Source: a virus
Virus record (IMG/VR): IMGVR_UViG_3300048915_000124
Span: 1-57,623 of that record
Length of the DNA: 57,623 nucleotides
Reading direction: 5' to 3' (one strand)
A model generated the notes under the pieces. It searched no databases. It was not told the origin of the DNA and saw nothing but the letters and a program-made list of their open reading frames with translations. The position numbers were made by a program, and so were the translations under genes. Of the stretch, positions 496-55,768 are shown in pieces (the stretch's first letter is position 1; every line of letters begins with the position of its first letter).

Positions 496-1344
496 GTGCA
501 GCGCACGATCGTCCGGGAGCGGATCCCGCGCACTGATCCCCGGCTGGGCAGGCACGTTCACCATGATTCGCTTTCGCGCGGGTACGCGTTCCGGGCGTCG
601 ACCCGCAAGCTCGCCAGCGTCCGGCATCCCCGCCGTGTCCCGGTGTTCGACCAGCTACGTCTCGGCTCGTGTGTCCCGAACGGCGGGGTCGGCTGTCTCG
701 GTACCGACCCGTTCTACGACGCGTTGCGGTCTCGGGTGACGTGGACGGAGGCGGCGTGTCTGGACTTCTACCGGAAGGTGACCCGCGCGGATCCGTGGCC
801 GGGCCAGTGGGAGCCGACGGACACCGGGTCGGACGGGTTGTCGATGGCGAAAGTGTTCACCGCCGACACCCTGATCTCCGGCTATCTCCACGCGTTCACG
901 TTTGCCGACGCGCTCGCCGCGTTGGCGGACCGGCCGCTCATCACCGGTGTCAACTGGTACGACTCGATGTTCGACCCGACCGCCGAGGGGGAGGTCCGGG
1001 TCACGGCCGGCGCGTCGGTGGCCGGCGGTCACGAGTTCGTGGTCGACGAACTGGACATGGAGCGGCAGCGGGTGTGGGCGACGAACTCGTGGGGCACGTC
1101 GTGGGGGGTGTCTGGCCGGTTCTGGTTGTCGTTCGCGACGTGGACGCGGCTGCTCGGTGAGGATGGCGATGTGACGGTGTTCGTGCCGGTCACTGATCCG
1201 CCGCCGGCACCGCCGCCGTCTCCCGCAGACCCGGACAGGACCCTCGCCGCGGCGGTCCGCGGGTGGGCGTCGGCCCGGCACGTCGGCGGAAACGCGGCCG
1301 CGGCGAAGGCGGTCCGGGCGTGGATCGCCGCGAAGGCGCTGTGA
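496..1344 (+). CDS. papain-like (C1-type) cysteine peptidase
   Basis: Motifs in papain order: VFDQLRLGSCVPNG (Cys), GGHEFVV (His), NSWGTSWG (Asn-Ser-Trp). GTG start at 496 follows GAGGGG; the ORF track starts at 481. Confidence 0.7.
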   Translation: MQRTIVRERIPRTDPRLGRHVHHDSLSRGYAFRASTRKLASVRHPRRVPVFDQLRLGSCVPNGGVGCLGTDPFYDALRSRVTWTEAACLDFYRKVTRADPWPGQWEPTDTGSDGLSMAKVFTADTLISGYLHAFTFADALAALADRPLITGVNWYDSMFDPTAEGEVRVTAGASVAGGHEFVVDELDMERQRVWATNSWGTSWGVSGRFWLSFATWTRLLGEDGDVTVFVPVTDPPPAPPPSPADPDRTLAAAVRGWASARHVGGNAAAAKAVRAWIAAKAL

Positions 1345-19084: not shown

Positions 19085-19400
19085 CCTCGACGATCTCAAC
19101 GCAACCGATTTACTCGCAGTGCAGCACTTCACTGACGACGACCGTCGGTGGCTTCAAGCGAATCTGGCGCTGGCGGGCATCGGCGCTCTGTTGCCACCTC
19201 CGCCGCACTCGCGGGAGCGGCTGGAATACCTGCGACAACTGGCGCTCGTGCTCACGGAAAAGAATCCATTCACGGTGGCGGACAAAGAGCGTTTCGACTC
19301 CGTGGTTGAGGAGTACGAGGAAACTGCCGCCTACCTGAGACTCCAGTCGGAGATGGACGCAACAAGGAACGCAATCGAGAGGTACCTGGCGCGTGGCTGA
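19077..19400 (+). CDS. hypothetical helical protein (107 aa)
   Basis: GTG at 19077 inside ORF 18969..19400, overlapping the upstream stop. Lower-GC segment. Confidence 0.5.
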   Translation: MADLDDLNATDLLAVQHFTDDDRRWLQANLALAGIGALLPPPPHSRERLEYLRQLALVLTEKNPFTVADKERFDSVVEEYEETAAYLRLQSEMDATRNAIERYLARG

Positions 19401-20109
19401 CCTCGCGATCATCACCCCGTCTCGTGGCCGCCCCGACCGGTTCGCCGAACTGGTCGCGTCGGTCGCCGCGACCGCCGCCGGTGACGTGCAGGTGTGGGTC
19501 GGGCTCGACGACGACGACCCCGCCGACTACCACGACGCGTGCAACGACCCGCCCGGCAACGTGCAGGTCGTCGCGTTCCTGGGCGAACGCCGGTCCCTGT
19601 CGGGGTGGACGAACCATCTCGCCGGGGAGGCCCTCGCCTCCATCGACCCGCCCCGCTATCTCGCGTCGCTGGGTGACGACCACCGCCCGCGCACGCCCGG
19701 CTGGGACCGGACGTTGATCGCCGCGATCGAGGGGCTTGACGGGCCGGGTTTCGCGTACGGGAATGACCTGTTTCAGGGTGCGGCGGTTCCGACGGCGTGG
19801 GTCGCGTCGGCCGTTGCGGTCCGGGCGGTGGGTTGGATGATGCCGCCGACGTGCGCGCACATGTTCGTCGACAACGCGGTTCTCGAACTGGGCCGGGCGG
19901 CTGGCCGGATTGTGTACCGCCCCGACGTGGTGATCGAACATCTCCACCCGGTTGCGGGGAAGGCCCATTGGGACGACTCGTACCGGGCGTCGAACCATCC
20001 GGACCGGTATGCGGCGGACAAGGCGGCGTTCGAGGTGTGGCTGCGTGACGGGCTGGACGCCGACGCTGCCCGGGTCCGCGCGGTGACCTACGCCAAGGCG
20101 GCCCGATGA
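19393..20109 (+). CDS. second glycosyltransferase (GT-A-like)
   Basis: DLAIITPSRGRPDRF (typical GT2 N-terminus), VWVGLDDDDP acidic motif, 238 aa. Confidence 0.6.
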   Translation: MADLAIITPSRGRPDRFAELVASVAATAAGDVQVWVGLDDDDPADYHDACNDPPGNVQVVAFLGERRSLSGWTNHLAGEALASIDPPRYLASLGDDHRPRTPGWDRTLIAAIEGLDGPGFAYGNDLFQGAAVPTAWVASAVAVRAVGWMMPPTCAHMFVDNAVLELGRAAGRIVYRPDVVIEHLHPVAGKAHWDDSYRASNHPDRYAADKAAFEVWLRDGLDADAARVRAVTYAKAAR

Positions 20110-31281: not shown

Positions 31282-31307
31282 CCGGGCCCCGCTCCTCCCA
31301 CGGTCCG

Positions 31308-31339
31308 CCGCCCCCGCCGTCTCCCCACGGCGGGGGCGG
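31308..31339 (+). terminator. strong GC hairpin ending the rightward late operon
   Basis: CCGCCCCCGCCG-tctcccca-CGGCGGGGGCGG, a 12-bp perfect stem 27 nt after the holin stop. Gene orientation changes shortly after it. Confidence 0.6.
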
Positions 31340-31442
31340 CTTCCGCATGTCTACCCTCAACAGGTGGGACTCGCGGTCTGGATTCGTTGGGTTTGATCCG
31401 CGAGCAGGCACCTTGGCGGGTAGGGGCGCATACCGTTACCCC

Positions 31443-32024
31443 ATGACCACGACGTACGTCAATACGCAGACGGTTCGCCACGCCCGACCCAAACGGGGCC
31501 GGCACAGACGCACCCACCCCGGCCGCCGCGCCGCCCTCGTCGCCGTCGTGCCGGTCGCGGTGTGGGCGGCGACCCTCACCGCCGGCCCGGCTAGCACACC
31601 CCACCCGATGTGGGTAGCCCCACCGGCCATCGACCGAACAGCCACCCCCACCCTCGTCCCGTCGAACCCCAGCGTGGATACTCCCGCACCGTCGCCGGAC
31701 AGTCCCGGACGGCACCGGACAACCATGCCGCCGCCGATGCGCGCACCCCAACCGCCCCGCACCCGGCCAGCGCCACCCACCCGGACCGCACCGGCACCCG
31801 CACCGGTGACGACGACGCACCGGTACACCATCAACAACCCGGCCACCCCCACGGTCAGCCCGACCCGGGGCATGAAGAAGCCGGCACCGCCGAGACGGCA
31901 CCGGCACCGGAACCCCGCACCTACCCCCAGCCGCGACCGGACCCGACACGTACCCGACCCGGCCGTGGTGCGGCCCACCGCCCGTTGTGGACGACGTTCC
32001 CGAACGGGTGGAGCCGGCGGATAG
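31443..32024 (+). CDS. membrane-anchored Pro/Thr-rich protein (193 aa)
   Basis: Internal ATG of ORF 30918..32024. Basic N-terminus, TM helix AALVAVVPVAVWAATLTAG, then a P/T-rich region. G/C-rich third positions until the last ~15 codons, which overlap the convergent gene. Confidence 0.4.
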   Translation: MTTTYVNTQTVRHARPKRGRHRRTHPGRRAALVAVVPVAVWAATLTAGPASTPHPMWVAPPAIDRTATPTLVPSNPSVDTPAPSPDSPGRHRTTMPPPMRAPQPPRTRPAPPTRTAPAPAPVTTTHRYTINNPATPTVSPTRGMKKPAPPRRHRHRNPAPTPSRDRTRHVPDPAVVRPTARCGRRSRTGGAGG

Positions 32025-32286
32025 TCGCCCGTTCCTCAGCACGGGCGCGTGGCACCGACGGGTACCAGCGGATCTTTTTGCGGCGCGGGTCGACCGATGA
32101 CCACCACCAGGACTTCCGGCGGTGCTTGTTGTCGCGGACCGGCGGGTTGCAGCTCATCCCGACGTACACGATCCGCCCGTCCCACCCGTAGTGCTCGTAC
32201 ACGGCGCAGCGTCGGCGGCGGGCGGCGATCCACGCGAGGATGAGACATCCGATGCCGCCGGCCAGCGGCCAAGCCCACCCGATCAC
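31921..32286 (-). CDS. GIY-YIG-like nuclease domain protein with N-terminal TM helix
   Basis: GTG at 32286 overlaps the upstream stop (GTGA). IGWAWPLAGGIGCLILAWIAA, then VYEHYGWDGRIVYVGMSCNPPVRDNKHRR...AEERATIRRLHPFGNVVHN. Confidence 0.55.
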   Translation of the reverse strand: MIGWAWPLAGGIGCLILAWIAARRRRCAVYEHYGWDGRIVYVGMSCNPPVRDNKHRRKSWWWSSVDPRRKKIRWYPSVPRARAEERATIRRLHPFGNVVHNGRWAAPRPGRVRVGSGRGWG

Positions 32287-32609
32287 GGGAAGTCCCTCCG
32301 GTGCGGCGTCATCGGCATCGAGAAGCCGCACGGCGGCACCTCGGGATCGACCGGCGGTTCCTCGTCGTACTTGGCGTACGTCTCCGTAACCTGCCGGTTG
32401 TCGTCGCGGTTGCCCACGCACACCGCCACCCAGCCGGTCAGGTAGTCGGCGCCGTGCCAACGGTCACCGACGCCAAAGCTGAGCGAGATCTCCACGAGGT
32501 ACGGATGCAGTCGGCCGCCGTTGCAGCGGGGGCACAGCGGCTGCCCCGATCCGGGGCTCATATTGACCTTGGCGAGCAAATCCAGTTGTACCGCAGTCGT
32601 GTCGCTCAC
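32283..32609 (-). CDS. hypothetical protein (CPRC zinc-ribbon-like)
   Basis: ORF track. Coupled to both neighbours. Confidence 0.55.
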   Translation of the reverse strand: MSDTTAVQLDLLAKVNMSPGSGQPLCPRCNGGRLHPYLVEISLSFGVGDRWHGADYLTGWVAVCVGNRDDNRQVTETYAKYDEEPPVDPEVPPCGFSMPMTPHRRDFP

Positions 32610-32827
32610 GGTTGTTCGCCCCGTTCCCGCAGGCGGCGTTCCGCACGCCGATACGCCGCCTCCACCGGATCAACCCGCCCGGCCGGCTCGACCAGCACCC
32701 GCGTCGACATGAGCACACCGACCCACTCGTCGTCGTCCTCAACCACGAACATGACCATGAGTGGTGGTACGACACAGCCGTGGTACGCGCCTGGCCCGTC
32801 CACGCGTCGCCGCTCCACACCGTCCAT
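32606..32827 (-). CDS. hypothetical protein (73 aa)
   Basis: ATG at 32827 inside ORF 32606..32842, 2 nt after the upstream micro-ORF stop. Confidence 0.5.
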   Translation of the reverse strand: MDGVERRRVDGPGAYHGCVVPPLMVMFVVEDDDEWVGVLMSTRVLVEPAGRVDPVEAAYRRAERRLRERGEQP

Positions 32828-32829
32828 CG

Positions 32830-32952
32830 TCAACCGTGGCAAGGACAGTCGCAGTCGGGATCAGGTCCGGGGTACGCCCCGGGGTCGTTGGGGTCATATG
32901 GCATCTCGTCCGCGCAGTCGCAGTCGAGGCAGCCGTCGTCTAGGTCTTCCAT
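32830..32952 (-). CDS. 40-aa Cys/Asp/Pro-rich micro-protein (below the ORF-track cut-off)
   Basis: GAGAGGAA RBS 6 nt before the ATG. MEDLDDGCLDCDCADEMPYDPNDPGAYPGPDPDCDCPCHG. G/C-rich third positions. Fills the gap between two operon genes exactly. Confidence 0.45.
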   Translation of the reverse strand: MEDLDDGCLDCDCADEMPYDPNDPGAYPGPDPDCDCPCHG

Positions 32953-32955
32953 CGC

Positions 32956-33198
32956 TCAATTCCTCTCGGCTGGCACGAACTCCAACAACAGGCCACCATC
33001 CGCCGCCAACGCCACCCTCGGCGCGAACCCCTCGACGCAGCGCAGCCACAGCACACACGGCGACCCGTCCGGCAGTGTCGCCTCCACCTCGAACAGCCGC
33101 CGCCCCGCCTCAACCCGCAACACCCGCACCGGGGCGAGCGCCGGCCGGCGGGGTGGGGCCTGCCACACCGGCGGGGCACCCCACACCAACGCCGTCAC
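32956..33198 (-). CDS. hypothetical protein (80 aa)
   Basis: ORF track. GTGA-type coupling upstream. Confidence 0.5.
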   Translation of the reverse strand: MTALVWGAPPVWQAPPRRPALAPVRVLRVEAGRRLFEVEATLPDGSPCVLWLRCVEGFAPRVALAADGGLLLEFVPAERN

Positions 33199-33572
33199 CG
33201 TGACACCGCCGACGTGTCGAGCAGCGCCAGCAGACTCCGGGCGTACAGGCCGATCTGCCCCGTCTCGTTGTGCCCGTCCGTCCGCAGCCGCTCCACCAGC
33301 ACAACCAGCGGCGGGGCGTACGCGTCGAGGGTCGCCGCCGCGATCCGCAACGTCGCGATCGCGTTCGCCCGCGCGTACGAGAACGCGTCGAGGTCGTCGG
33401 CCGCCTTCCGCAGCGCCGCGACCATCGCGTCCACATCCGGGTACAGCCGCCCGTCGGCGATGTTCAGCCAGTCCCGGCGGTGCGCCGACCGGACATGCCC
33501 GAAGAACACCGCGTCGGGTACCTCCACCGGGGCGGGGTGGGAGGCGTGCGTGCAGAACGTCACCGCGCTCAC
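33195..33572 (-). CDS. hypothetical helical protein (125 aa)
   Basis: ORF track. Coupled to its neighbours. Confidence 0.55.
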   Translation of the reverse strand: MSAVTFCTHASHPAPVEVPDAVFFGHVRSAHRRDWLNIADGRLYPDVDAMVAALRKAADDLDAFSYARANAIATLRIAAATLDAYAPPLVVLVERLRTDGHNETGQIGLYARSLLALLDTSAVSR

Positions 33573-33718
33573 CGCCCCGCCGGGTGGATCGCGTCGGCGA
33601 ACTGGAACGCCGCGTACATCACCGTCACCTCAACGAACAACGCCACGACCAGCACCACCGCCGCCAACGCCAACAGCCACGTCGGCAACGTCGGGCGGGT
33701 CTGCGTCTCAGTCTCCAT
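33569..33718 (-). CDS. single-TM small membrane protein (49 aa)
   Basis: ATG at 33718 inside ORF 33569..33775. LPTWLLALAAVVLVVALFVEVTVMY. Confidence 0.5.
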   Translation of the reverse strand: METETQTRPTLPTWLLALAAVVLVVALFVEVTVMYAAFQFADAIHPAGR

Positions 33719-33725
33719 CAGGTCT

Positions 33726-34028
33726 TCATCCTCTCGCCGCGGCCAGCGCGGCCCACAGCAACAGCAGGACAGCAACGCCGCCCAGCACGGTCACCAACCC
33801 CGACGCCGGCCGCCGGAACGCCAACTTCCCAGCCACCGCGACCGCGCCGACAGCGGCGACCGCAGCCAACCAGGCGTGCGGCACGGTAGCCCACAGGTAC
33901 GACAGGAACGCCCACCCAGCGACCCCGGCGAGCGCGGCCAACAGGACCGGGCCGAACAGGACGAGCAGCGGATGCCGCCACCCGAGCTTCGCCCACGCCG
34001 ACCGGCGCGCCGTCCGCCACCCGCTCAC
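33726..34028 (-). CDS. multi-pass small membrane protein (100 aa)
   Basis: Three hydrophobic helices (PLLVLFGPVLLAALAGVAGWAFL, AWLAAVAAVGAVAVAG, LVTVLGGVAVLLLLWAAL). Confidence 0.55.
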   Translation of the reverse strand: MSGWRTARRSAWAKLGWRHPLLVLFGPVLLAALAGVAGWAFLSYLWATVPHAWLAAVAAVGAVAVAGKLAFRRPASGLVTVLGGVAVLLLLWAALAAARG

Positions 34029-34288
34029 GCCGCCACATCCTCACCGGCCTGCAGGATCCCCCGCTGGTAGGCGAGCGCGACCGCGTGGGCGCTCGTCGAC
34101 GCGCCGAGCGCCCACCGGACCCGCCGCACATGCGTCCCCACAGCCTGCCGGCCGAGGTGCAACCGCGCCCCGATCTGTTTCTGCGTCAGGCCCTCGGCGA
34201 GCAGCGTCACGACCTGCATCTGCCGGCCCGTCAGGATGCCGCCCGGCCCGACCCGACGCCGGGGCAGCGGCGTCACATTCGCGTCCAT
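34025..34288 (-). CDS. LuxR/GerE-type HTH regulator (87 aa)
   Basis: LTGRQMQVVTLLAEGLTQKQIGARLHLGRQAVGTHVRRV. ATG at 34288 overlaps the upstream stop (TAATG). Confidence 0.7.
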   Translation of the reverse strand: MDANVTPLPRRRVGPGGILTGRQMQVVTLLAEGLTQKQIGARLHLGRQAVGTHVRRVRWALGASTSAHAVALAYQRGILQAGEDVAA

Positions 34289-34611
34289 TACCGGTTCACG
34301 TCCCAACGCGGCGCGGACGCCGCCTTCAACGGCACCACGATGTACCGGTTGTAGTCGATCCACAGCATCCCCGCCGCGACGCCGGTCTGCCGGGCCAGCT
34401 TCGCCATGTACCGCAGGTGCCGGGCGACGACCGTGCCCGGGGACCGGCCGAACCGGTTCCGGTCGATGGGGAGTTGGTCCCACTGCACCGCGCACGACGC
34501 GGCGAGGTTGTCCCACCCGATAGCGATCGCGGATGTCTCGTCCTGCACGGTGCGGACGAACCGGTCGAGTTTGCTTGAACAGTCGAGGTCCGGAACGGTC
34601 AAAGTCGGCAT
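34288..34611 (-). CDS. hypothetical protein (107 aa)
   Basis: ORF track. Coding-like composition. Confidence 0.55.
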   Translation of the reverse strand: MPTLTVPDLDCSSKLDRFVRTVQDETSAIAIGWDNLAASCAVQWDQLPIDRNRFGRSPGTVVARHLRYMAKLARQTGVAAGMLWIDYNRYIVVPLKAASAPRWDVNR

Positions 34612-34618
34612 GATTCCA

Positions 34619-34810
34619 TCAATCCTTTATCACTCGGTGTAACTCTTCTGGATGTTGCGGCCCCGTCTTCGCGAAGTTCGCGAAGATCGGTCTGTCCGGA
34701 TATGCCTGGCCGTTCGCGAACTTCACGGCCCACTTCGCGAACGCCTCCCTATAAGCGCCCCCCGACTTCGCGAAATCCGACTTCGCGAACTTCGCGAAAT
34801 CTACGATCAC
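34619..34810 (-). CDS. possible 63-aa FAK/FAN-repeat micro-protein coupled to the translocase gene (coding status uncertain)
   Basis: GTG overlaps the translocase stop (GTGA). VIVDFAKFAKSDFAKSGGAYREAFAKWAVKFANGQAYPDRPIFANFAKTG... Each FAK/FAN is one TTCGCGAA octamer. Confidence 0.35.
   Translation of the reverse strand: MIVDFAKFAKSDFAKSGGAYREAFAKWAVKFANGQAYPDRPIFANFAKTGPQHPEELHRVIKD
34668..34798. repeat. array of seven palindromic TTCGCGAA octamers (candidate cis-acting site)
   Basis: Copies start at 34668, 34677, 34713, 34734, 34767, 34782 and 34791. Spacings are 9, 36, 21, 33, 15 and 9 nt. Four copies share the ACTTCGCGAA context. Confidence 0.9.
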
Positions 34811-37041
34811 CCTGTGTGACCGGCGACGACGGCGCCGTCGAGGACCTTCGGCTCCCGCAGGATCACGAACTCGCCCCGGTCCAACCGCTCGATCGTCAGA
34901 CCCGGCGGCGACACAACCTCGCCCTTCGCGACCCGGTCCATCCGCTCCGAGAACCACGACACAGACCGCTTGAACGGGAACCGGGCGATCACGTCCCTTG
35001 GCGCGAACGTCTCCATCCCCTCATCTGCCATCCGCCGCAGCACCAGGTCGAACGCGTCGTAGGCCGCCTGCCGGTTCGGGGCCTCGGGCCGTTCGTCGCC
35101 GCTGTCCCAAATCAGGTCAGGCTCGTCCAACTCTTCCGGGGGGCGCAGCTCGTCGGGGTCGGCGTTGGCGTAGCGCTCCACGTCGCCGGGTTCGGGGTCG
35201 TCCATCGCCGGGACCGGGGGGACCTCGTCCGGGTCGGCGGATGCCCAGTCCTTTAGGTCGTAGGGGTTGACGTTCGGGTCGGTGTGCATGTCAATCTCCT
35301 CGTCTCGCGGTTGCGTCGGGGTGACCCAACGCGGCGGGTTGGTTGGTAGCGGTACGGTCGGGGACTCCGCCGCCGGCTGCGCTGGCGGTGCGTATGCCGC
35401 CGCCGCACGGCCCGGCGGTTGGAACATCGCCCACGCCTTCCCCAGGTCAGCGATGTCGGCGGGGTGCATCCGGGCCCGGTAACGCCGGCCGTCCACGATC
35501 GCCGGGACGAGCACGTCGAACCCGCCGCGCAGCGACCGGATCTCCATCGCGTACCGGGACTCGTCGACACCCGGCGCCCCGTCGAGGAAGTGGTAGCCGG
35601 GTTTCGTGTTCCGCCAGTCGCAGACCTTGTCACCACCGGCCATCACGGTCCGTTTCGTCATCGCGAACGTGTGGGAGTAGTCGTCGCCGGTCCCGAAGAC
35701 CTGCCACTGGTTCATCGCCGTCCGGGCGGTGGTGTCCATCGAGTCGCCATCCGCGCGGGGCATCAACGCATGTACGAAGATCCCCGCGGACAGGCACTTC
35801 GTGACGAGGTCCCGGAACTGGGTGGTGCCGCACACCATGTCCGCCTCGTCGATGACGACGAGCAACGCCGGCAGGCCGAGGTCTTCGTACGTGCGGACCG
35901 TCCAGTCGTTGTGCCGGTGCGCGCCCATCCGCGTAGCCCGTGCGAACGCCAACTTCGCGAGCGCACCGAGCAGCGCTTTCGCTTTCGCATAGCCGTCTGC
36001 GTAGAGGACCACGTCGTCCATCACCTGCGCGGCCAACGATTGGCCCGGTTTCGCGCAGTCGATGTACACGACGAGTACGTCGCGGCGGGTGAACGCAATG
36101 TCGGTCCACAGGATCGCGCCGCACCCCGACTTCCCCGACCGGGTTGTACCGACGGTGCCGAGGTGCCCGGCGGGGATGTCGTCGCCGTTCGCATCGGCCC
36201 ACTTCGCGAACCGCACGACCTCGGGTTGCGCATCCGCGTACCGGCCGCACACCCCGCCGTCTGCGAACGAACCACCCGGATGCGAAGGCCCATCCCAGCG
36301 GGGCCACGGTTCGAGGGGGTCGCGGTGCATGAACACCATCCGGATCTTCTTCGTGATCGGGTTGCGTTCCAGCCGTGACCGGCCGGGCAGCGCCGCCGGC
36401 ACGGCGTCTTCGATCGCTTCCATCCGGTGCGCAACGTCGCTCATCGTCTTCCCCGGGCCGGGGCTGATCTCAGCGGTGATGTGGTGCGCGTCGATCGTCG
36501 GCTGGCTGACCGTGGCCCGATCGAGGCCGATCAACTTCCCGAACGTGTCAGCCCCGGCGCCGTCCTTGGCGCGGCTGTCGGCGCGCAACGCGTCGATGCG
36601 GGGCAGGTGCCACGACCCGGCACCGATCAGCGACAACGTGAAGTGGATGATCAGCCACGGCAGGGACCAGCCGAACACGACGGTAAACCCGACCAGGAAT
36701 CCGGCGAGCCACATGGTCCCGATGACGTGGGCGGCGACGAACGTGTCCCGTTTCGTGACCCGCGTGTTGTGCAGCCACGCAATCAGCGACAGGGCGCAGA
36801 CGCTGAGGCACACGCACGCGGTGATGATGGCCTTGACGTGCGGGTCACCGATCCCGATTGGCCATGGCAATGGCCACCCGTTGACGGTGCGGACCTGGTC
36901 GCCGAGCAGGTACAGGGCGGTCGAGCCCCACGGGATCGCCGCGAACCAGACCCGCCAGTACCCGACGAACGGGGTGGTGCCGCGCCCGCGTGGGCGGCGT
37001 TCGTCGTGGTCGTGGTGCTCGGCGCGTCGCGTCGTCGTCAC
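34807..37041 (-). CDS. membrane-anchored FtsK/SpoIIIE-family DNA translocase (TraB-like architecture)
   Basis: GTG at 37041 inside ORF 34807..37290. About four N-terminal TM helices, Walker A GTVGTTRSGKSG, Walker B LLVVIDEAD, an acidic linker, and a C-terminal ~80-aa helical, possibly winged-helix domain. Confidence 0.8.
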   Translation of the reverse strand: MTTTRRAEHHDHDERRPRGRGTTPFVGYWRVWFAAIPWGSTALYLLGDQVRTVNGWPLPWPIGIGDPHVKAIITACVCLSVCALSLIAWLHNTRVTKRDTFVAAHVIGTMWLAGFLVGFTVVFGWSLPWLIIHFTLSLIGAGSWHLPRIDALRADSRAKDGAGADTFGKLIGLDRATVSQPTIDAHHITAEISPGPGKTMSDVAHRMEAIEDAVPAALPGRSRLERNPITKKIRMVFMHRDPLEPWPRWDGPSHPGGSFADGGVCGRYADAQPEVVRFAKWADANGDDIPAGHLGTVGTTRSGKSGCGAILWTDIAFTRRDVLVVYIDCAKPGQSLAAQVMDDVVLYADGYAKAKALLGALAKLAFARATRMGAHRHNDWTVRTYEDLGLPALLVVIDEADMVCGTTQFRDLVTKCLSAGIFVHALMPRADGDSMDTTARTAMNQWQVFGTGDDYSHTFAMTKRTVMAGGDKVCDWRNTKPGYHFLDGAPGVDESRYAMEIRSLRGGFDVLVPAIVDGRRYRARMHPADIADLGKAWAMFQPPGRAAAAYAPPAQPAAESPTVPLPTNPPRWVTPTQPRDEEIDMHTDPNVNPYDLKDWASADPDEVPPVPAMDDPEPGDVERYANADPDELRPPEELDEPDLIWDSGDERPEAPNRQAAYDAFDLVLRRMADEGMETFAPRDVIARFPFKRSVSWFSERMDRVAKGEVVSPPGLTIERLDRGEFVILREPKVLDGAVVAGHTG

Positions 37042-37042
37042 G

Positions 37043-37741
37043 TCAGGCGCCCCGTTCCTGGCGTAGTTCCTTCGTCCACAGCTCGACGGCACGTTTGCTG
37101 ACACCGAGCGCGAGGGCGATCTCCGCGCAACTGCCCTCCCGTGCGGCGTACCGGCGGCGGGCCTCGTCCGCGGTCGGGTTGGTCGATGCCGGACGGGTCT
37201 TCGGACGCTGCCGGCGGCGGGTAGGCCGTGCAGCCCGTGCGGGCACGTCAGCGGCAGGCGGTGCCGCCTCGGCGGCCGGTCGCTGTACACGCGGCGCGGG
37301 AACCGACACGACCGGGACCGGCCGGTGTCGCCACGTCACCACCGCGAGGTGCACACCGAGCGACAACAGCACCGGCAGCACACCCGCACCGATCCAGCCC
37401 TGCCACGGCAAGCCGCGCGCCTGCGCATCGGCGAGGTTCGCGGCGATGCTCGACGCGTTCGCCACCGCGAACACCGACCACGCGTACACACGCACCCGGA
37501 ACGGTGCACCGGCGAGGACGAACGCCGCCGCGACCGCGACGATCTGCAACACGTCCAGCGCAACCGGCACCGCGAACGCGAACCGGTCACCGAGGCGCAT
37601 CACGTCACGCCCATAGCCCCAGTTCCCATGCGCAGTCAGAGCGAAGATCCCGGCGATGACGACCGCCGTCGCGGTGATGAGCACACCGGCGGCGGTGCGT
37701 TGCGCAGTGTCAGGCTTCGCACCCGCGTTCGCATCGGTCAT
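37043..37741 (-). CDS. DUF2637-like four-TM membrane protein with C-terminal HTH
   Basis: ATG at 37741 inside ORF 37043..37849. Four hydrophobic helices, a Pro/Arg linker, then AREGSCAEIALALGVSKRAVELWTKEL. First gene of the leftward operon. Confidence 0.6.
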   Translation of the reverse strand: MTDANAGAKPDTAQRTAAGVLITATAVVIAGIFALTAHGNWGYGRDVMRLGDRFAFAVPVALDVLQIVAVAAAFVLAGAPFRVRVYAWSVFAVANASSIAANLADAQARGLPWQGWIGAGVLPVLLSLGVHLAVVTWRHRPVPVVSVPAPRVQRPAAEAAPPAADVPARAARPTRRRQRPKTRPASTNPTADEARRRYAAREGSCAEIALALGVSKRAVELWTKELRQERGA

Positions 37742-37843
37742 GGCCGCAAGTATGGGGTCGCTTGCGCGCTGTGCGCAACCCGCACGGTGCGCACGGCACG
37801 CGCAACTATACCCAGGGTGACGTGCGCAACAGACTTGCGTACC
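37742..37843. promoter_or_regulatory. divergent control region with TGCGCAAC-type repeats
   Basis: GTGCGCAAC at 37771 and 37822, CGCGCAAC at 37799, GTGCGCAC at 37787. Two inverted GTTGCGC copies lie just inside the rightward gene (about 37913..37936). Confidence 0.45.
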
Positions 37844-38107
37844 ATGCACGCCATGCGCGACGAAGACGCCCCCGACAGCGAAGACTGGCTGTCGCCGCGC
37901 GAAATCGCCGACGCGTTGCGCGTGCCGTTGCGCACCGTCCAGGCGTCGTTCGCAGACGACGAACTGCGCATCCGATGGTGGGAGCCGGAGGTCGACGGGC
38001 GGCGGGTCAAGGCGTGGCGTACGAAGCCGTTGACGCGGCAGCGGCAGTACCAGGCCCGCCGGTGGGCTGTCGACCGGCTCGTCGGCGGCGAGCCGGTCGG
38101 TGCGTAA
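37844..38107 (+). CDS. small HTH DNA-binding protein divergent from the translocase operon
   Basis: WLSPREIADALRVPLRTVQASF is HTH-like. ATG at 37844 (or 37853) inside ORF 37325..38107. Confidence 0.55.
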   Translation: MHAMRDEDAPDSEDWLSPREIADALRVPLRTVQASFADDELRIRWWEPEVDGRRVKAWRTKPLTRQRQYQARRWAVDRLVGGEPVGA

Positions 38108-41695: not shown

Positions 41696-41989
41696 ATGCG
41701 CGTAGCAGTGTGGATCAACAACATTCACGACCTCGACGAACTCGACCGGCTCCACGTCTACTGCCGCCGGCAAGGCCACGAGGTCCACGCTGTCGTCCAC
41801 GACGCCGAAGGCATCGCCGACGCCGCCCGCATGTACGTCGACGGCGACATCGGCGCACTCGTCATCGTGTCCCGCAAGTGCCTGCCGCTCCCCCTGGAAA
41901 TCATCACCGTCGAGGTCGTGACCACGTTCCCTACGCAGCGTCGCCGGTCCGGGCAGATGCAGGGCCACCGCCCACGCCGTCTCCGCTGA
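41696..41989 (+). CDS. small protein resembling a serine-recombinase N-terminal domain but lacking the catalytic Ser
   Basis: GAAAGGGG RBS and about 90% G/C third positions. MRVAVWINNIHD..RLHVYCRRQGHEVHAVVHD..GALVIVSRKCL. Compare the resolvase MR.A.Y.R.S pattern, where N replaces S. The 3' end overlaps the int 3' end by 59 nt. Confidence 0.4.
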   Translation: MRVAVWINNIHDLDELDRLHVYCRRQGHEVHAVVHDAEGIADAARMYVDGDIGALVIVSRKCLPLPLEIITVEVVTTFPTQRRRSGQMQGHRPRRLR

Positions 41990-42818
41990 GATCCGGCAAC
42001 ATCAGCATCGCCTGTTGCAGCCGGTCCATCCGTACCTCTGTGTACCGCTGCGTCGTCGTCAGCAGAGAATGCCGCATCAACTCCTGCACCCACCGGACGT
42101 TGCCGCACTGGTCGAGCAGCGTGGTGGCGTACCAGTGCCGCAACCGTCGCAACGTCACGTCGACGCCCAGACGCCGCACATGGCGCGCGGTCGCACTACT
42201 CACCCACCGCGCGTCAGCCGGCCTACCGTCCCGCTGACGGGTCACCGGCCCCGGTGGTAGATCACGCACCGCACGCCACACCACGGGATGCATCGGCAGC
42301 TTCGCCGGCTTGTCGCCCTTGCCGTGCTGCACAACGATCACCCTTGCGGTCATATCCTGCCGGCGCAGCGCCGCGATCTCGATCGGGCGCAGCCCTCCGT
42401 ACGCGGCGAGGATGCAATGCAGGCGGAACGGCTGCCGCGCCTGCGTCACACACAACCGCACCACGTCGGTTGTCGCCGGGCTCGGCACACCGCGTGGGAC
42501 CTTCGGCCGTTTGATCCGCGCCATCGGGTTGTGCGACAGCCACGGCGGGTCGTCGTCGCCCTCGACCGCCCACGTGTAGCAGCGCCGCAGGTGTCCCCCA
42601 TAGGTCGACCGGGTCTGGTTGACGGGGAACCGGTCGAGCCAGTCACGGATTTCGACCGGGTGCGCCTCGGGGACACCACGGGGAAGCTCACGATGTGCCC
42701 GGTACAGCACGTACCGGGCCCTGTCGATGGTGCGCGGCGAATACTCTTCCTCGCGCAGGTACATCAGATGCGCCTCGATCATGCGGTCCACGGTGGTCAT
42801 ATCAGCCACACTCGTCAC
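41931..42818 (-). CDS. int: tyrosine integrase (XerC/D-like, 295 aa)
   Basis: GGLRPIEIAAL (Arg I), LRRLRHWYAT (H-x-x-R box region), LMRHSLLTTTQRYT (His and the catalytic Tyr). Confidence 0.9.
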   Translation of the reverse strand: MTSVADMTTVDRMIEAHLMYLREEEYSPRTIDRARYVLYRAHRELPRGVPEAHPVEIRDWLDRFPVNQTRSTYGGHLRRCYTWAVEGDDDPPWLSHNPMARIKRPKVPRGVPSPATTDVVRLCVTQARQPFRLHCILAAYGGLRPIEIAALRRQDMTARVIVVQHGKGDKPAKLPMHPVVWRAVRDLPPGPVTRQRDGRPADARWVSSATARHVRRLGVDVTLRRLRHWYATTLLDQCGNVRWVQELMRHSLLTTTQRYTEVRMDRLQQAMLMLPDLSGDGVGGGPASARTGDAA

Positions 42819-43210
42819 GCTGCGACGGGTGCCACCCCGACCGGCCGGACATGGTCCGCCCCGGCGTCACCCGACCGGGGTCGTCCATTCGAGCTGACGA
42901 TGAGCAGCCGATCCATGATGTTGCGGATCCGGCTCAGCCGAACGGTTGGTGTGAGATACCGACCGGTAATGCCACCTTTCCCGGGTTGGATCAAGTCGCG
43001 GGGATCCACGCCGAGCGCGATGGCGATCCGTTCGATCTCGTCCAGGTCAAACGCGATATCTCCAGTGAGACGCCGGGACAGCGCCGACTGAGTGAGCCCG
43101 ACCTGTTGTGCCAGACGGGATTGGCTGATCCGCCGTCGTGCCATCAGGGCACGGACCTCCTCGGCTGCCGTTTCGCGGAGCGGCGCCGGCAGGGCGGGGG
43201 ATGTCGTCAT
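42815..43210 (-). CDS. XRE-family immunity repressor (CI-like), co-transcribed with int
   Basis: ATG at 43210 inside ORF 42815..43570. ISQSRLAQQVGLTQSALSRRLTGDIAFDLDEIERIAIALGV. Its stop overlaps the int start (ATGA). Confidence 0.7.
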   Translation of the reverse strand: MTTSPALPAPLRETAAEEVRALMARRRISQSRLAQQVGLTQSALSRRLTGDIAFDLDEIERIAIALGVDPRDLIQPGKGGITGRYLTPTVRLSRIRNIMDRLLIVSSNGRPRSGDAGADHVRPVGVAPVAA

Positions 43211-43241
43211 AGAGATCAGTCTGATGTCCGGAGCGAGCAGA

Positions 43242-43323
43242 GTCAACGCTGAGCGGGCAAACGGATCGCTATGCGAGCATCCTGCCCGCTCGGTGGGTTG
43301 ACTTACCCGCTCAGTGGGTAGAC
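43242..43323. promoter_or_regulatory. immunity switch: operator repeats and divergent promoters
   Basis: Tandem 19-mers GCCCGCTCGGTGGGTTGAC (43284) and ACCCGCTCAGTGGGTAGAC (43305), plus an inverted related copy at 43242..43258. TTGACT -35-like hexamers face both ways. Both flanking ATGs lack an RBS and look leaderless. Confidence 0.55.
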
Positions 43324-43324
43324 G

Positions 43325-43567
43325 ATGCTCTACATGGGTGAGCCAGTCACAGAGACGGTAGCGGGCGAAGTCCGCGCCGAAATTGCCCGCCAGAAGATTG
43401 ACCGGCGAAAGCTCGCCGCAGACGCGGGGATGTCCCGTTCCGCGCTCGCCCGCCGCCTGTCCGGCACCGTGCCGTTCGACGTGTCCGAGTTGCAGCGCAT
43501 CGCCGTCGCGCTCGGGAAACCAGCCGCGCACTTCCTGCCCGCCGCCGAGGTGGCGTCCACCCCCTGA
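43325..43567 (+). CDS. Cro-like XRE-family HTH protein
   Basis: IDRRKLAADAGMSRSALARRLSGTVPFDVSELQRIAVALGK. Paralogous to the repressor HTH and divergently arranged. Confidence 0.65.
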   Translation: MLYMGEPVTETVAGEVRAEIARQKIDRRKLAADAGMSRSALARRLSGTVPFDVSELQRIAVALGKPAAHFLPAAEVASTP

Positions 43568-46132: not shown

Positions 46133-46755
46133 ACGTCGTCGGACTCGACCTGTCGTTGACCTCGACCGGGGTTGCGGGGACCACGTGCGGCGACGTGTGG
46201 ACCGCCCGGATCCGGCCACCCGCCAAACTCACCGGCCACGACCGGCTCAACTACATCCGCCGCACCATCCTCGACTTCTACCTGCCCGGTGTCGCCCTCG
46301 TCGTGGTCGAGGGCCCGTCGCTGCGTAGCCCCGGCAAGTACGCCCACGAAAGCGCCGGCCTGTGGTGGCTCGTCACCCACTCCCTGTGGCGCGCGAAGAC
46401 GCCGACCGCGATCGTGCCGCCGAACAACCGGGCGCAGTACGCGACCGGGCTCGGCGACGCGAACAAGCGTGAGGTGATCGCGTCGGTCGCCGAACTGTTC
46501 CCGTGGTTCAACGTCGGCCGGCGGCCCGGGCTCGCCGACGAGGCTGACGCGCTCGTCCTCGCGGCGATGGGCTGCGACTGGGCCGGGGAACCCCTCGTCG
46601 TGGTGCCGGCGAAACACCGCGCGGCGCTTGACGGCTGCGTCTGGCCGACCCTGCCCCCGAAGAGTCCCCTGTCCGCCGCCGTGACCGTCCTGGGCCCACC
46701 ACAACGGGTGTCTCCGGCGGCGGATGGGGGTGCAACCCCAGGAATCCTGCCATGA
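46129..46755 (+). CDS. RuvC-like Holliday-junction resolvase
   Basis: VVGLDLSLTSTG (Asp), LVVVEGPS (Glu), LADEADALVLAAMG (Asp-x-x-Asp region). Confidence 0.7.
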   Translation: MNVVGLDLSLTSTGVAGTTCGDVWTARIRPPAKLTGHDRLNYIRRTILDFYLPGVALVVVEGPSLRSPGKYAHESAGLWWLVTHSLWRAKTPTAIVPPNNRAQYATGLGDANKREVIASVAELFPWFNVGRRPGLADEADALVLAAMGCDWAGEPLVVVPAKHRAALDGCVWPTLPPKSPLSAAVTVLGPPQRVSPAADGGATPGILP

Positions 46756-47210
46756 CCCCGCCAACCCGGCCCCCCGACCTGCGCGGCGCCGCCTGCCGCA
46801 ACGTCGAGGACAAGGACATCTTCTTCCCGTTCCCGGGGAACTACGCCGCCGTCGACGCCGCCAAGGCGATCTGCCGGGGCTGCCCCGTCCTCGCCGCGTG
46901 CCGCCCCTGGGCCCTCGCTGTCGCCCGCGACATGTACGCCAACCGGCAGGACATGCAGGGCGTGTGGGCGGGGATGTCCGAACGGGACCGGCAGCCGTAC
47001 CTCACGGTCCGGGCCGAGTGCGGCACCGACGCCGGGTTCTGGCTGCACGTCCGGTTGGGGGAGCGGACGTGTCCGGCGTGCCGGGCGGTGCACCGCTACG
47101 TGCGGGAACACGGCCCGGCGGCGACAGCGGCCCGGAATGAGCGGCGCCGTGGGCATCGGGCGGCGTGCAACGCGGCGGCTGTGGTTGACGTGTCGGCGGT
47201 GGCGTCGTGA
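46752..47210 (+). CDS. WhiB-like transcription factor with C-terminal extension
   Basis: Four Cys (AACRNV...AICRGCPVLAAC) and GVWAGMSE (G[VI]WGG-type turn). Confidence 0.8.
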   Translation: MTPPTRPPDLRGAACRNVEDKDIFFPFPGNYAAVDAAKAICRGCPVLAACRPWALAVARDMYANRQDMQGVWAGMSERDRQPYLTVRAECGTDAGFWLHVRLGERTCPACRAVHRYVREHGPAATAARNERRRGHRAACNAAAVVDVSAVAS

Positions 47211-54163: not shown

Positions 54164-54445
54164 GTGCCCGAACAGCCAGCGACACCCGACGTTCGGGACT
54201 GGCGCGACCTCGTCGACTGGTGGGCCGACCCCCGCCTCGCCTACGCCGCTGGGCTCGCCGACGGTGCCGCCCTCGAACGGGCCCGCGCCGACCTCGAAGC
54301 CGACGCCGGGCAACGCGCGGCCGCGCGGCGAGCCAGCGTCGTCATCCAGCAGGGCAACGCCCGCGCCATCGCCGACCGGCCCGGACCCCGCCCCGGCGAC
54401 CACCCCGGACACGCACGCACCCAACGACCGGAGCGTGCCGCATGA
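54164..54445 (+). CDS. hypothetical protein (93 aa)
   Basis: GTG 8 nt after GGGGAGG. ATGA coupling to the next gene. Confidence 0.45.
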   Translation: MPEQPATPDVRDWRDLVDWWADPRLAYAAGLADGAALERARADLEADAGQRAAARRASVVIQQGNARAIADRPGPRPGDHPGHARTQRPERAA

Positions 54446-55599
54446 CCATCCCCGCCGAAGCCGCCACCCTGCACTGCGCGCTCTGCGGCAACGGACTCGT
54501 CCCCTGGCGACCCGGCCAGACCACCCACCCCATGTGCGACCCCGCCGAAGCCGACCGGATCCGCGAAGCCGCCGCCAACCCACCCGCCCCACCACTCAAC
54601 GGCGCCGCCGGCCACACCGACCCCGACCAACACACCAGCTACGTCGACCGGCTCCGCGCCAACCTCATCGACACCGCCGGCCTCGACAGCATCGGCGACC
54701 CCGAACCCCTCATCACCGGCGTCGTCCAACTCGACTCGATCGCCTGGATCGGCGGCCGGCCCGGCTCCGCGAAAACCCTCGTCGCGCTCGACATGGCCGG
54801 CGCGGTCGGCACCGGACAGCCATGGCAAACCATCCCTGTCCGAAAAGGATCAGTGCTGTACCTGATCGCCGAAGGTGCCCGCGGCATCCGGAAACGGGTC
54901 CGGGCGTGGGAAGCCGCCAACGACCGGCCCATGACCGGGGTCACGTTCCTCCCCGTCGCCGTCCAGGCCGCGAGCGAATTGCAGTGGAACGCGCTGTGCG
55001 AACTGGCCGCCGACCTGAAACCGGCGCTGATCGTCATCGACACCCAGGCCCGGGTGACGGTCGGCATGGAGGAGAACTCGAACAAGGACATGGGGGTCTT
55101 CGTCGACCGGCTTGAACGGCTCCGGCGGGCGTGCGCGGCGTGTGTCCTCGTCCTCCACCACACTCCACGCGGATCGGACAATCTACGCGGCGCGACGGCG
55201 ATGGAGGGTGCCGCCACCACGATCATTATGACCGTGATGGAGGGCGACACCGTCACCCTCATAAATGCCCCAGAAGAGGGCGGAAAGCAAAAAGACTTCG
55301 ACCCGTTCGACCCCATCAACCTGCGTCTGATACCTACCGATAGGTCCGTTATTCTGGCTCTCACGGACCGTCCACAAAGGACGGACACAAATTCGAAGGC
55401 CGTCCGCGACTTGCTCTCACGCTGGTGGGCCCTTCATGAGAGCGACGAGGTTTCCGTATCCGTCCTGATCAAATCCGGTGCCTGCTCCGAAGCCACGTTC
55501 CACCGATCGAAGAAAGCCCTGATAGCCGACGGTTTCGTGGCCAAGGAAGGTAAGGGCAACCAGGTCCGCTACCGCTTACTGAGAGATCCATCGTCATGA
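54442..55599 (+). CDS. AAA_25 / RepA-like RecA-fold ATPase with C-terminal winged-helix (replication initiator or helicase-like)
   Basis: Walker A GGRPGSAKT, Walker B ALIVIDTQ, VLVLHHTPRG. C-terminal FHRSKKALIADGFVAKEGKGNQVRYRL. N-terminal CALCG zinc knuckle. Confidence 0.7.
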   Translation: MTIPAEAATLHCALCGNGLVPWRPGQTTHPMCDPAEADRIREAAANPPAPPLNGAAGHTDPDQHTSYVDRLRANLIDTAGLDSIGDPEPLITGVVQLDSIAWIGGRPGSAKTLVALDMAGAVGTGQPWQTIPVRKGSVLYLIAEGARGIRKRVRAWEAANDRPMTGVTFLPVAVQAASELQWNALCELAADLKPALIVIDTQARVTVGMEENSNKDMGVFVDRLERLRRACAACVLVLHHTPRGSDNLRGATAMEGAATTIIMTVMEGDTVTLINAPEEGGKQKDFDPFDPINLRLIPTDRSVILALTDRPQRTDTNSKAVRDLLSRWWALHESDEVSVSVLIKSGACSEATFHRSKKALIADGFVAKEGKGNQVRYRLLRDPSS

Positions 55600-55602
55600 G
55601 TG

Positions 55603-55730
55603 GCTCTCAAGCGCTCTCAAGCGCTCTCAGGAAAGTAAGCCATAGACGCCCGCACTCACTCTCATGCTCTCACCACCTCTTAGAGGTGAGAGCGTGAGAG
55701 CGAGGCGATGGCGGCCAGTACCTCTTAGAG
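55603..55730. repeat. iteron-like repeats and palindrome: candidate replication origin
   Basis: GCTCTCA at 55603, 55613, 55623 and 55666. Inverted TGAGAGC at 55687 and 55695. Perfect palindrome CACCTCTTAGAGGTG at 55674..55688, with ACCTCTTAGAG again at 55720. Lower-GC region directly after the ATPase gene. Confidence 0.5.
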
Positions 55731-55768
55731 ATCAAAAGCGCATCAAGAGGAGAGGGTGACCACCGCCG

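Follow-up and report, generated by a model that had tools for sequence, protein, structure and literature searches.

A TraB-like gene and an adjoining clt-like repeat array in the genome of an uncultured temperate actinophage

Could a tailed phage of a mycelial actinomycete carry a DNA pump of the kind by which Streptomyces plasmids are transferred? Conjugation of the Streptomyces type, which relies on a single FtsK-like protein to move double-stranded DNA (dsDNA), is usually viewed as a trait of plasmids and of actinomycete integrative and conjugative elements (AICEs), and the spread of phages through mycelium is viewed as based on particles. The question is raised by an operon of leftward genes at positions 31921-37741 of the viral record IMGVR_UViG_3300048915_000124, of which the whole stretch analysed (positions 1 to 57,623; 57,623 nt) is called the window below. 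The operon encodes a homologue of the plasmid translocase TraB, followed directly by an array of octamers that resembles the clt loci of Streptomyces plasmids. The reading that we favour, and hold to be probable though well short of certain, is that 31921-37741 represents a Streptomyces-plasmid-type TraB/clt module for dsDNA transfer, located among the early or accessory genes of a temperate tailed phage that encodes an integrase and infects a mycelial actinomycete, and that its TraB would pump phage dsDNA.

The second gene of the operon, g2, provides the first part of the answer. The gene and the predicted parts of its product are the following:

34807..37041, minus strand: g2, TraB-family FtsK-like dsDNA translocase of 744 residues, by NCBIfam, hhalign and fold comparison
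36613-36963: transmembrane (TM) domain, residues 27-143, with helices 27-49, 67-94, 100-123 and 127-143 in the AlphaFold2 (AF2) model
Residues ~170-540: motor domain, an alpha/beta P-loop domain in the AF2 model
36124-36150: Walker A motif, G298-G306
35845-35850: Walker B motif, D398-E399
Residues 545-650: disordered linker rich in Pro and Asp
34855-35073: winged helix, residues 657-729

The NCBIfam model NF041214 (plasmid_TraB) matches g2 with E=7.2e-64, aligning residues 71-709 to positions 34-620 of the 639 in the profile. A tblastn search of 72,556 plasmids with g2 returned 30 records, all from Streptomyces, Nonomuraea or Amycolatopsis, with 24-32% identity and mostly annotated as traB; these plasmid traB genes are the sole annotated matches of g2 by tblastn. 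When a profile of the twelve-member phage family was compared by hhalign with an annotated plasmid TraB, the two aligned over 530 columns (100%, E=2.7e-39), and the alignment spans the C-terminal domain (query 664-729 to template 607-667). Throughout the 12-sequence alignment, G298, T300, G303, K304 and G306 of Walker A and D398 and E399 of Walker B are invariant.

From a structural perspective, the AF2 model of g2 consists of four N-terminal membrane helices, the P-loop domain, the disordered linker and a C-terminal helical-plus-hairpin unit, with hydropathy peaks at residues 67-93 and 100-140. In a Foldseek comparison of the motor with the PDB, the top 17 structures were FtsK motors, dsDNA-bound (E from 3e-12 to 5e-9, ~420 columns), with EccC/EssC and the coupling protein TcpA ranking behind them. 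The match is therefore not confined to EccC or packaging ATPases, and the C-terminus aligns to that of TraB. Modelled alone, the last 97 residues gave a predicted local distance difference test score (pLDDT) of 83.5 and the topology H1-b1-H2-H3-b2-b3, which is that of a winged helix; a phmmer search of PDB sequences with g2 produced spurious TM matches only. Taken together, alignment and modelling indicate a membrane-anchored protein whose motor has the fold of FtsK-type hexameric motors and whose C-terminus forms a winged helix. The original prediction, made from the letters alone, had proposed a 744-residue FtsK/SpoIIIE ATPase with about four N-terminal TM helices, Walker A and B motifs and a possible winged helix, as part of a plasmid- or AICE-style TraB module inside a complete phage; hydropathy, alignment and model agree with the former, and the NF041214 and hhalign matches, with the virion genes and integrase described below, with the latter.

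The second part of the answer lies in the gap between g2 and the next gene, which contains:

34612..34806: clt-like locus, a 195-nt gap with a GC content of 0.58 against 0.69
34668, 34677, 34713, 34734, 34767, 34782 and 34791: starts of seven TTCGCGAA octamers
34744-34755: central CTTATAGGGAGG motif, inside the array
34805-34822: boundary palindrome GGTCACACAGGGTGATCG, overlapping the traB stop
34627-34643: boundary palindrome GTTACACCGAGTGATAA

The array, which the original prediction had merely listed, starts 9 nt past the TraB stop codon and is the strongest evidence for a transfer module. The octamer TTCGCGAA occurs nine times in the window, where 1.02 copies are expected, and seven of these copies fall within 131 bp (34668-34798). 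None of 100 shuffles reached nine copies per window and, when the gap only was shuffled, none of 300 reached seven. The same k-mer script, run as a positive control on a pWTY27-type plasmid, recovered TGACACC seven times directly after traB; this sequence corresponds to DC1, the repeat of the pWTY27 clt, a locus that deletion proved necessary for transfer and that Tra binds in footprinting experiments (PMC3583192). Repeats of 8 bp that TraB recognises are also described (PMC4447253; PMC4170104).

The array was then compared among relatives, namely 11 close contigs (29-56% identity) and 8 more distant IMG/VR contigs (26-31%); a scan of IMG/VR with the single g2 protein returned nothing, and it was the alignment-based scan that found the distant ones. 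An array is present at the same place in 13 of the 19 contigs (10 of the 11 close and 3 of the 8 distant ones), in gaps of 160-250 nt. Each array is built of its own lineage-specific 7-9-mer, nearly restricted to its gap, so that at least 10 different repeats occur over the 13 contigs:

L008: CGTGAACG
L021: TCG(C/T)GAAG
L007: GCGCAATTGC
L009: CGAA(T/GT)TCG
L002: CGGAAAAC
L010: CGTAAAAC
L003: TGA(A/G)CTCA
L004 and L022: GAAACG-type
L006: TGGAACTG
L012 and L017: GGAAAGTC
L019: ACCGTCCA, ten copies

In the distant contigs L014, L015, L016 and L018 the next gene follows within a few nt of the traB stop with no array there, and their clt, if they have any, must lie elsewhere. In nearly all lineages the variable arrays are flanked on either side by conserved palindromes of the form (T/G)(C/A)AC-N5-GTGA, which stand at the same positions in the window, L002-L004, L007-L010, L012, L013, L017 and L021. 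Since the left palindrome lies past the stop codon in L002, L010 and L004, it appears to be a DNA signal; the right one is found 17-33 nt ahead of the start of the TraA-like gene. These boundary palindromes could serve as an operator or as an assembly boundary. Moreover, a central CCTNAGG(G) element is common to phage and plasmid arrays (L001, which is pCQ3, and L011): in pCQ3, where CTGACA-type repeats follow traB, it is a central CCTTAGG within CCTTAGGTAA, and in the pWTY27-type plasmid it is CCCTCAGGC. No mention of this element was found in the clt literature surveyed. At the sequence level the locus thus matches the experimentally defined clt loci in where it lies and how large it is, in the length and number of its repeats, in their specificity to the element and in internal layout.

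Which protein would read the octamers? The three closest TraBs have in common both helix 3 of the winged helix, (S/G)WFSER(M/L), and the repeat core TCG(C/T)GAA; for example, the window TraB has SWFSERMDRV with TCGCGAA, and the L008-type protein GWFSERLAEI with TCGTGAA. L012 and L017 likewise combine the same helix 3, S(W/M)ISKRFT, with the same repeat GGAAAGTC, while the repeats of L002 and L010 differ by one base and their helices 3 by K-to-Q and R-to-Q changes. In 42 of 45 pairs, divergence is greater in the winged helix than in the motor (mean identity 0.38 versus 0.49), and between L002 and L010 the identity is 53% in the winged helix, 75% in the motor and 82% in the TraA-like protein. 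These correlations fit the winged helix of TraB as the putative octamer reader, a role that has been published for the TraB of pSVH1, as cited in PMC3583192.

The third part of the answer concerns the replicon. The window has a G+C content of 69%, and an exact overlap of 31 bp between its ends (1-31 = 57593-57623) indicates a circular assembly closed at the k-mer level; because of this overlap the genome is considered closed and complete, at ~57.6 kb. It encodes the large terminase subunit (TerL), portal, head protease, major capsid protein (MCP) and head-tail adaptor for packaging and the head, and the tape measure protein (TMP), Dit, minor tail proteins and endolysin for tail and lysis, so that the capsid, tail and lysis set and the integrase expected on one replicon are all present. 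The genes for lysogeny and regulation are:

41931..42800: tyrosine integrase
42815..43246, minus strand: CI-like gene, divergent from the Cro-like gene
43325..43567, plus strand: Cro-like gene, divergent from the CI-like gene
46752-47210, plus strand: WhiB-like regulator (E=3e-15)

Further genes encode an ERF recombinase, an AAA_25 replicative ATPase and several DNA methyltransferases. No partition (ParA/ParB) or plasmid-Rep family was detected among the ~60 window proteins scanned, although unannotated small genes could still encode one. Because virion and lysis genes, integrase and CI/Cro genes occur together and no Par/Rep family was recovered from those ~60 proteins, the window is judged by gene content to be a complete temperate tailed actinophage. 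The nearest cultured relatives of its MCP are Mycobacterium phages, at ~26% identity, and the exact sequence of g2 is recorded solely from a JGI metagenome contig. The CI-like/Cro-like pair lies 5.5 kb from the tra operon, which has its own separate control region.

The remaining genes of the operon were called by third-position G+C in each phase (GC3 frame plot) and analysis of open reading frames (ORFs), as mechanical ORF lists are unreliable at 69% G+C. They are, in order of transcription and all on the minus strand:

37043..37741, minus strand: g1, membrane/helix-turn-helix (HTH) protein, 232 residues; 3-4 predicted TM segments, Pro/Arg-rich linker, C-terminal HTH
34288..34611, minus strand: g3, TraA-like protein, 107 residues, first gene past the array; GC3 0.89-0.92
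34025..34288, minus strand: g4, GerE/LuxR-type HTH regulator, 87 residues; Pfam GerE E=1.4e-8 and multiple NCBIfam LuxR-type C-terminal domains
33726..34028, minus strand: g5, small polytopic membrane protein, 100 residues; ~3 TM segments by hydropathy
33569..33718, minus strand: g6, single-TM protein, 49 residues; GC3 0.96, Shine-Dalgarno (SD)-like GAGAGGA upstream, no homologue in relatives
33195..33572, minus strand: g7, soluble protein, 125 residues; GC3 0.95, homologues in L003 and L004, no family match
32956..33198, minus strand: g8, lineage-specific, 80 residues; GC3 0.89, 4-nt overlap with g7, no homologue
32830..32952, minus strand: g9, Cys/Asp-rich peptide, 40 residues; in the phase of the frame plot, good SD GAGAGGAA, no homologue
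32606..32842, minus strand: g10, lineage-specific, 75-78 residues; start at 32833 or 32842, weakest coding signal of the operon
32283..32609, minus strand: g11, lineage-specific CxxC protein, 108 residues; GC3 0.87, no family match or homologue
31921..32286, minus strand: g12, membrane-anchored GIY-YIG-type nuclease, 121 residues; TM residues 1-22

With g2, 12 leftward genes are thus supported within 31921-37741. The coupled leftward operon of the original prediction stands, although not with 13 genes: the sole candidate for a 13th, the 63-residue ORF 34619..34810, is merely the translated octamer array, is unconserved and was rejected. Likewise, of the junctions said to be nearly all overlaps of 1-4 nt, 6 of 11 are such overlaps (TAATG at g3/g4; GTGA or ATGA at g4/g5, g6/g7, g7/g8, g10/g11 and g11/g12), four are spacers of 0-7 nt and one is the 195-nt gap after g2 that houses the array. 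This translational coupling resembles that of spd operons (PMC4447253). The frame plot also led to internal starts for two genes, the 163-residue ORF being rejected for the GerE gene in favour of 34025..34288 and the 179-residue ORF being rejected for the GIY-YIG gene in favour of 31921..32286, and g3 was recognised as a separate gene. The predicted LuxR-type HTH and TM-anchored GIY-YIG domain are both recovered, the former with its start corrected to the 87-residue gene; of the two small polytopic membrane proteins that had been proposed, g5 fits the description and g6 has one TM segment only.

Several of these genes are conserved beside traB. The g1 product has TM segments at 15-39, 52-86 and 115-138 by hydropathy, and a weak C-terminal match to HTH_23 (E=0.0085 in the window copy, 1.9e-6 in orthologues). 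Its homologues precede traB-like genes in 9 loci, and its stop codon is 1 nt ahead of the traB start. DUF2637 (PF10935) matches 7 of the 9 positional g1 orthologues (best 1.7e-9), among them those of L007 and L009 (36-38% identity to g1), and a 14-kb Streptomyces plasmid has a DUF2637 protein upstream of traA-traB. The predicted DUF2637-like protein with an HTH is thus upheld as to its TM segments, its HTH and its orthologues, but not by a DUF2637 match of the window copy, and g1 is assigned to the DUF2637 family by orthology only. The g3 gene is kept directly after the array in 7 close relatives; the profile of its family aligns with the TraA of pCQ3 by hhalign (79%, E=1.6e-5, 82 columns), and the L007 orthologue has a weak match to the TraA-like family PF28214. 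A GerE gene occupies the same position in L002, L003, L004, L007, L009, L010 and L021, and is missing from L008 and L006. For g5, weak homologues are found in L009, L018 and L008 and no match in the family libraries scanned; it is a Spd-like candidate by analogy only. None of g7 to g11 could be assigned to a family, and the majority of them are lineage-specific.

The nuclease g12 matches two PHROG endonuclease families (3.9e-10 and 4.8e-8), and the catalytic pattern Y30, G43, R51, E85 and N97 is invariant over 8 family members. Homologues are present in 8 related loci, fused to a DUF2637-like protein in L005 (7891-8973) and L006 (7234-8280); Pfam GIY-YIG reaches 1.9e-7 in the fused versions and gives no match for the window g12 alone. 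By this conservation g12 appears as a conserved partner or part of the TraB module. The synteny of the related contigs comprises the membrane protein, TraB, array, TraA-like gene and GerE gene, with adjoining lysis and tail genes, and the conserved core, as far as homology defines it, consists of a DUF2637-type protein, TraB, clt, a TraA-like protein and a GIY-YIG protein. PADLOC detected no defence family among the operon proteins, save a generic HTH match for GerE.

The flanks of the operon are marked by the following features:

31307-31340: hairpin with a 14-bp GC stem (-38.6 kcal/mol, z=-6.5)
31880..31905, minus strand: terminator-like hairpin closing the leftward operon; 11-bp stem with 8 GC pairs, followed by a CTTCTTC tail
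37742..37843: divergent control region between leftward g1 and a rightward 87-residue gene, with a cluster of TGCGCAAC-type repeats
37844..38107, plus strand: rightward 87-residue gene, which adjoins the g1 orthologues in L007 and L009 too

The hairpin at 31307-31340 and the divergent region had both been predicted and are both real. TGCGCAAC occurs nine times in the window (2.66 expected), with four of the nine copies at 37699-37934, around the divergent region, and the cluster likely represents operators for a regulator of the tra operon. The gene 37844..38107, earlier taken as an excisionase, has no Pfam match. Between the two hairpins, which are separated by 540 bp, a rightward Pro-rich ORF of 193 residues (31443-32024, plus strand) begins, its start resembling a signal anchor; its wobble phase coincides with that of the leftward ORF 31436..31978, ~100 nt of it overlap the 3' end of g12, and the minus-strand hairpin falls inside it. 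No Pfam match and no homologue in relatives was found for it.

Some features elsewhere in the genome are also worth recording. A 530-residue protein (3254-4846, plus strand) matches DMFA2_C, the C-terminal domain of N,N-dimethylformamidase beta-subunit-like proteins, with E=1e-78, an unusual phage cargo, and a peptidase-like gene (496..1344) lies near it. Two glycosyltransferase/methyltransferase-like genes (17268-18671 and 19393-20109, plus strand) are situated between the MCP and head-tail adaptor genes, which suggests glycosylation of the virion. A candidate replication origin at 55600-55750 has the lowest GC content in the window (0.56), with iteron-like direct and inverted repeats, including GCTCTCAAGC in 2.7 copies and a 20-nt inverted repeat (55655-55704); the cumulative GC-skew minimum falls there too, just past the AAA_25 ATPase gene (54442..55599). 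Rfam gave no match in the window.

How might such a module work? The family and locus identifications are direct results of comparison, and binding, pumping and the biological route are what we infer from them by analogy and modelling. In the proposed mechanism, helix 3 of the winged helix would enable TraB hexamers to recognise the octamers of the phage's own dsDNA, in its circular or replicating form; the hexamers would assemble in the membrane where hyphae form septa or touch, and would pump double-stranded phage DNA into the neighbouring compartment or hypha. The g1 protein and the small membrane proteins may take the role of Spd proteins, and expression of the downstream genes may be controlled by the GerE protein and by the conserved palindromes on either side of the array; the GIY-YIG nuclease might process DNA for translocation or act in exclusion. 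The result would be a virion-independent spread, either inside the mycelium or, as with AICEs, from hypha to hypha, beside packaging and lysis. To our knowledge, how circular dsDNA is opened for a hexameric pore is still unexplained for Streptomyces conjugation generally. A further-reaching version, which we regard as tentative and on the whole rather unlikely, is that an uncultured group of temperate actinophages uses the TraB/clt pump as a regular second route of infection: dsDNA genomes would cross septa or hyphal contacts after entry or induction, one infection could colonise a mycelium without virions, and g12, sometimes fused to DUF2637, would open the circular dsDNA for the pore.

A number of results weigh against a TraB/clt transfer module. 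As regards g2, the score of 216.4 bits lies far under the NF041214 equivalog cut-off of 800 bits, above which curators take the function to be the same, and for this reason the protein is placed, by homology, in a divergent subfamily of TraB. Pfam gives FtsK_SpoIIIE alone, at E=0.057, and because Pfam is nearly silent the identification rests on NCBIfam, hhalign and the fold comparison. The Foldseek neighbours of the isolated winged helix are all generic winged-helix domains, none of them significant (best E=0.038), and FtsK-gamma is absent from the top 50. As regards the array, TTCGCGAA is a palindrome, whereas the clt repeats of pSVH1 and pJV1 are described as direct repeats (PMC4447253; PMC3583192); 6 of the 19 related contigs have no array after traB; and phylogeny confounds the octamer-helix 3 correlation. 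The TraA-like or GerE protein could be the reader instead. As regards the neighbours, the window g1 has no DUF2637 match at E<=10, the comparison of the g1-family profile with the plasmid DUF2637 protein reaches 3.9% in an alignment that mixes two architectures, and no GntR-type TraR/KorA regulator of the kil-kor kind was found. Finally, the phage is uncultured, with no cultured relative in 50,697 phage records: tblastn with the whole TraB and with its motor domain gave no match there even at E<=1, and megablast with region 31921-37741 no nucleotide match. A scan of GTDB genomes with the alignment-based pattern produced 28 pattern matches, 0 of them confirmed, and no prophage or cultured host.

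Four other explanations have to be weighed against the same evidence. The FtsK motors are the best structural match of g2, and the array is a single cluster of sites, as a centromere might be; the TraB-like pump could accordingly serve the inheritance of an episome or prophage, clearing or segregating phage DNA across sporulation or vegetative septa, with the array as a loading or centromere-like site. Some other device for inheritance could be needed if the phage persisted as an episome, the contig being circular and without ParAB in the scanned genes. We nevertheless consider this distinctly unlikely, as g2 is specifically similar to TraB and not to chromosomal FtsK, FtsK is guided by dispersed and oriented motifs and not by one cluster, the integrase and CI/Cro switch leave no obvious need of partition, and the TraA-like and DUF2637 neighbours are associated with conjugation.

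Just as low is the probability we give to the idea that the array is mainly an operator or promoter that serves g3-g12 and is recognised by the GerE or TraA-like protein, with a TraB that is not aimed at phage DNA and that would act in superinfection exclusion or as a kil-type effector on the host. The location of the array directly upstream of g3-g12, the conserved palindromes around it with one shortly before the start of g3, and the GerE HTH gene that follows in most relatives would all agree with it, and the octamer-helix 3 correlation is compatible with other linked readers. However, L008 and L006 lack the GerE gene yet possess arrays, the conserved palindromes are more plausible as operators than the octamers, which vary between lineages, the gap yielded no sigma-70-like promoter, and no defence family was matched; moreover, a lineage-specific 7-9-mer repeated 5-10 times is what is seen in clt loci footprinted with Tra (PMC3583192).

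It is very improbable that the module is inert cargo, a recently captured and non-functional AICE or plasmid fragment. Phage genomes are mosaic and the closest annotated homologues of g2 are all on plasmids, but at least 19 phage-type contigs, with identities of 26-56%, retain the synteny, all Walker motifs and ORFs are intact, and the arrays have co-diversified, which indicates long-term purifying selection inside phages. Least probable of all is that the array is an iteron-type replication origin that happens to adjoin traB, as clustered short repeats in a lower-GC intergenic gap might suggest, given the better candidate at 55.6-55.75 kb (GC 0.56, iteron-like repeats, skew minimum, next to the AAA_25 ATPase) and an array position that is fixed relative to traB, and not to replication genes, in all lineages and in the plasmids with proven clt.

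If a TraB/clt transfer module is the right reading, the window and its 19 relatives suggest that complete TraB-clt modules are stably kept in integrative tailed phages, beyond a few large plasmid-phages. Were the module active, phage genomes would move from cell to cell without virions, with a bearing on the exploitation of multicellular hosts by phages, the spread of lysogens, gene flow in soil and the continuum between phages, AICEs and plasmids. The TraB winged helices paired with distinct 7-9-bp repeats form a natural panel for a TraB-DNA recognition code, and the conserved GIY-YIG partner gives a testable starting point for asking how the pore takes up circular dsDNA. To a specialist a TraB in a phage-like replicon will be no surprise; it is the comparative set that makes the idea of plasmid-like spread of phages testable.

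Among known systems, the nearest are the Streptomyces plasmid-phages pZL12/phiZL12, pFP4, pCQ3/pCQ4 and pSLE1, which unite virion and tra genes and are reported both to conjugate and to form particles (PMC4170104; PMC3583192). The principle of virion and TraB-type genes on one replicon is therefore already published and not new, and the earlier statement that no such module had been described in a phage was overstated. As in the window, tailed-phage virion genes and a TraB-type tra gene share a replicon; in pCQ3, the best plasmid match, a few kb separate traA-traB from the genes for the major capsid protein and an HK97 gp10-family protein, and traB is followed by CTGACA-type repeats with the same central CCTTAGG motif. 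Plasmid-phages, however, are autonomously replicating ParAB plasmids of 85-90 kb (PMC4487206), whereas the window has 57.6 kb, a tyrosine integrase, CI/Cro and no detected Par/Rep family. The two TraBs are ~31% identical over half their length, traA is upstream in pCQ3 and the TraA-like gene of the window is downstream of clt, only one other gene (a 142-residue protein) is held in common, and no GIY-YIG or DUF2637 homologue is detectable in pCQ3 with the window proteins.

The TraB-clt plasmids pSVH1, pIJ101, pJV1 and pWTY27 likewise have a single membrane-anchored FtsK-like translocase with a C-terminal winged HTH and element-specific clt repeats of 7-9 bp at or just past the tra 3' end (PMC4447253; PMC3583192), and their operons include small spd-type genes with translational coupling as well as genes for a DUF2637 protein and TraA. 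The window differs from them by an identity of 24-27%, below the NCBIfam equivalog cut-off, by four predicted TM helices in TraB where the pWTY27 TraA has two, by a palindromic octamer, by GerE instead of GntR TraR/KorA, by an extra membrane GIY-YIG nuclease and by its phage replicon. AICEs such as pSAM2 and SLP1 also combine integrase-mediated residence in the chromosome, TraB-type dsDNA transfer and Spd-like proteins (PMC3218068; PMC9513070), but they measure ~9-24 kb, lack virion genes and replicate by RepSA/RepAM-type proteins, while the window is a full 57.6-kb phage; no clt has been described for pSAM2 (PMC9513070), and the array of the window is obvious. A chromosomal match in Nonomuraea, considered as a link to the published integrating phage PhiNon1, was rejected: no window phage gene matches there, the nearby tRNA is tRNA-Tyr and not tRNA-Val, and the element is probably an AICE.

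FtsK/SpoIIIE with KOPS or SRS share with the window the fold of a hexameric dsDNA pump (Foldseek E=3e-12), an 8-bp motif and a C-terminal winged helix; their motifs, however, are dispersed and polarised and those of the window clustered at one locus, the sequence of g2 is TraB-like, and the gamma domain was not recovered. The temperate Streptomyces phages phiC31 and VWB have a SpdB2 homologue, a membrane protein of the plasmid-spread type suggested to aid the spread of phage DNA (PMC4447253). In these the Spd-type protein stands by itself (PMC4447253), whereas the window has TraB, clt, a TraA-like gene and a DUF2637-type protein. What is new here is an integrase-bearing uncultured lineage with a divergent TraB, clt arrays that co-vary across many contigs, a distinct gene order and a nuclease partner.

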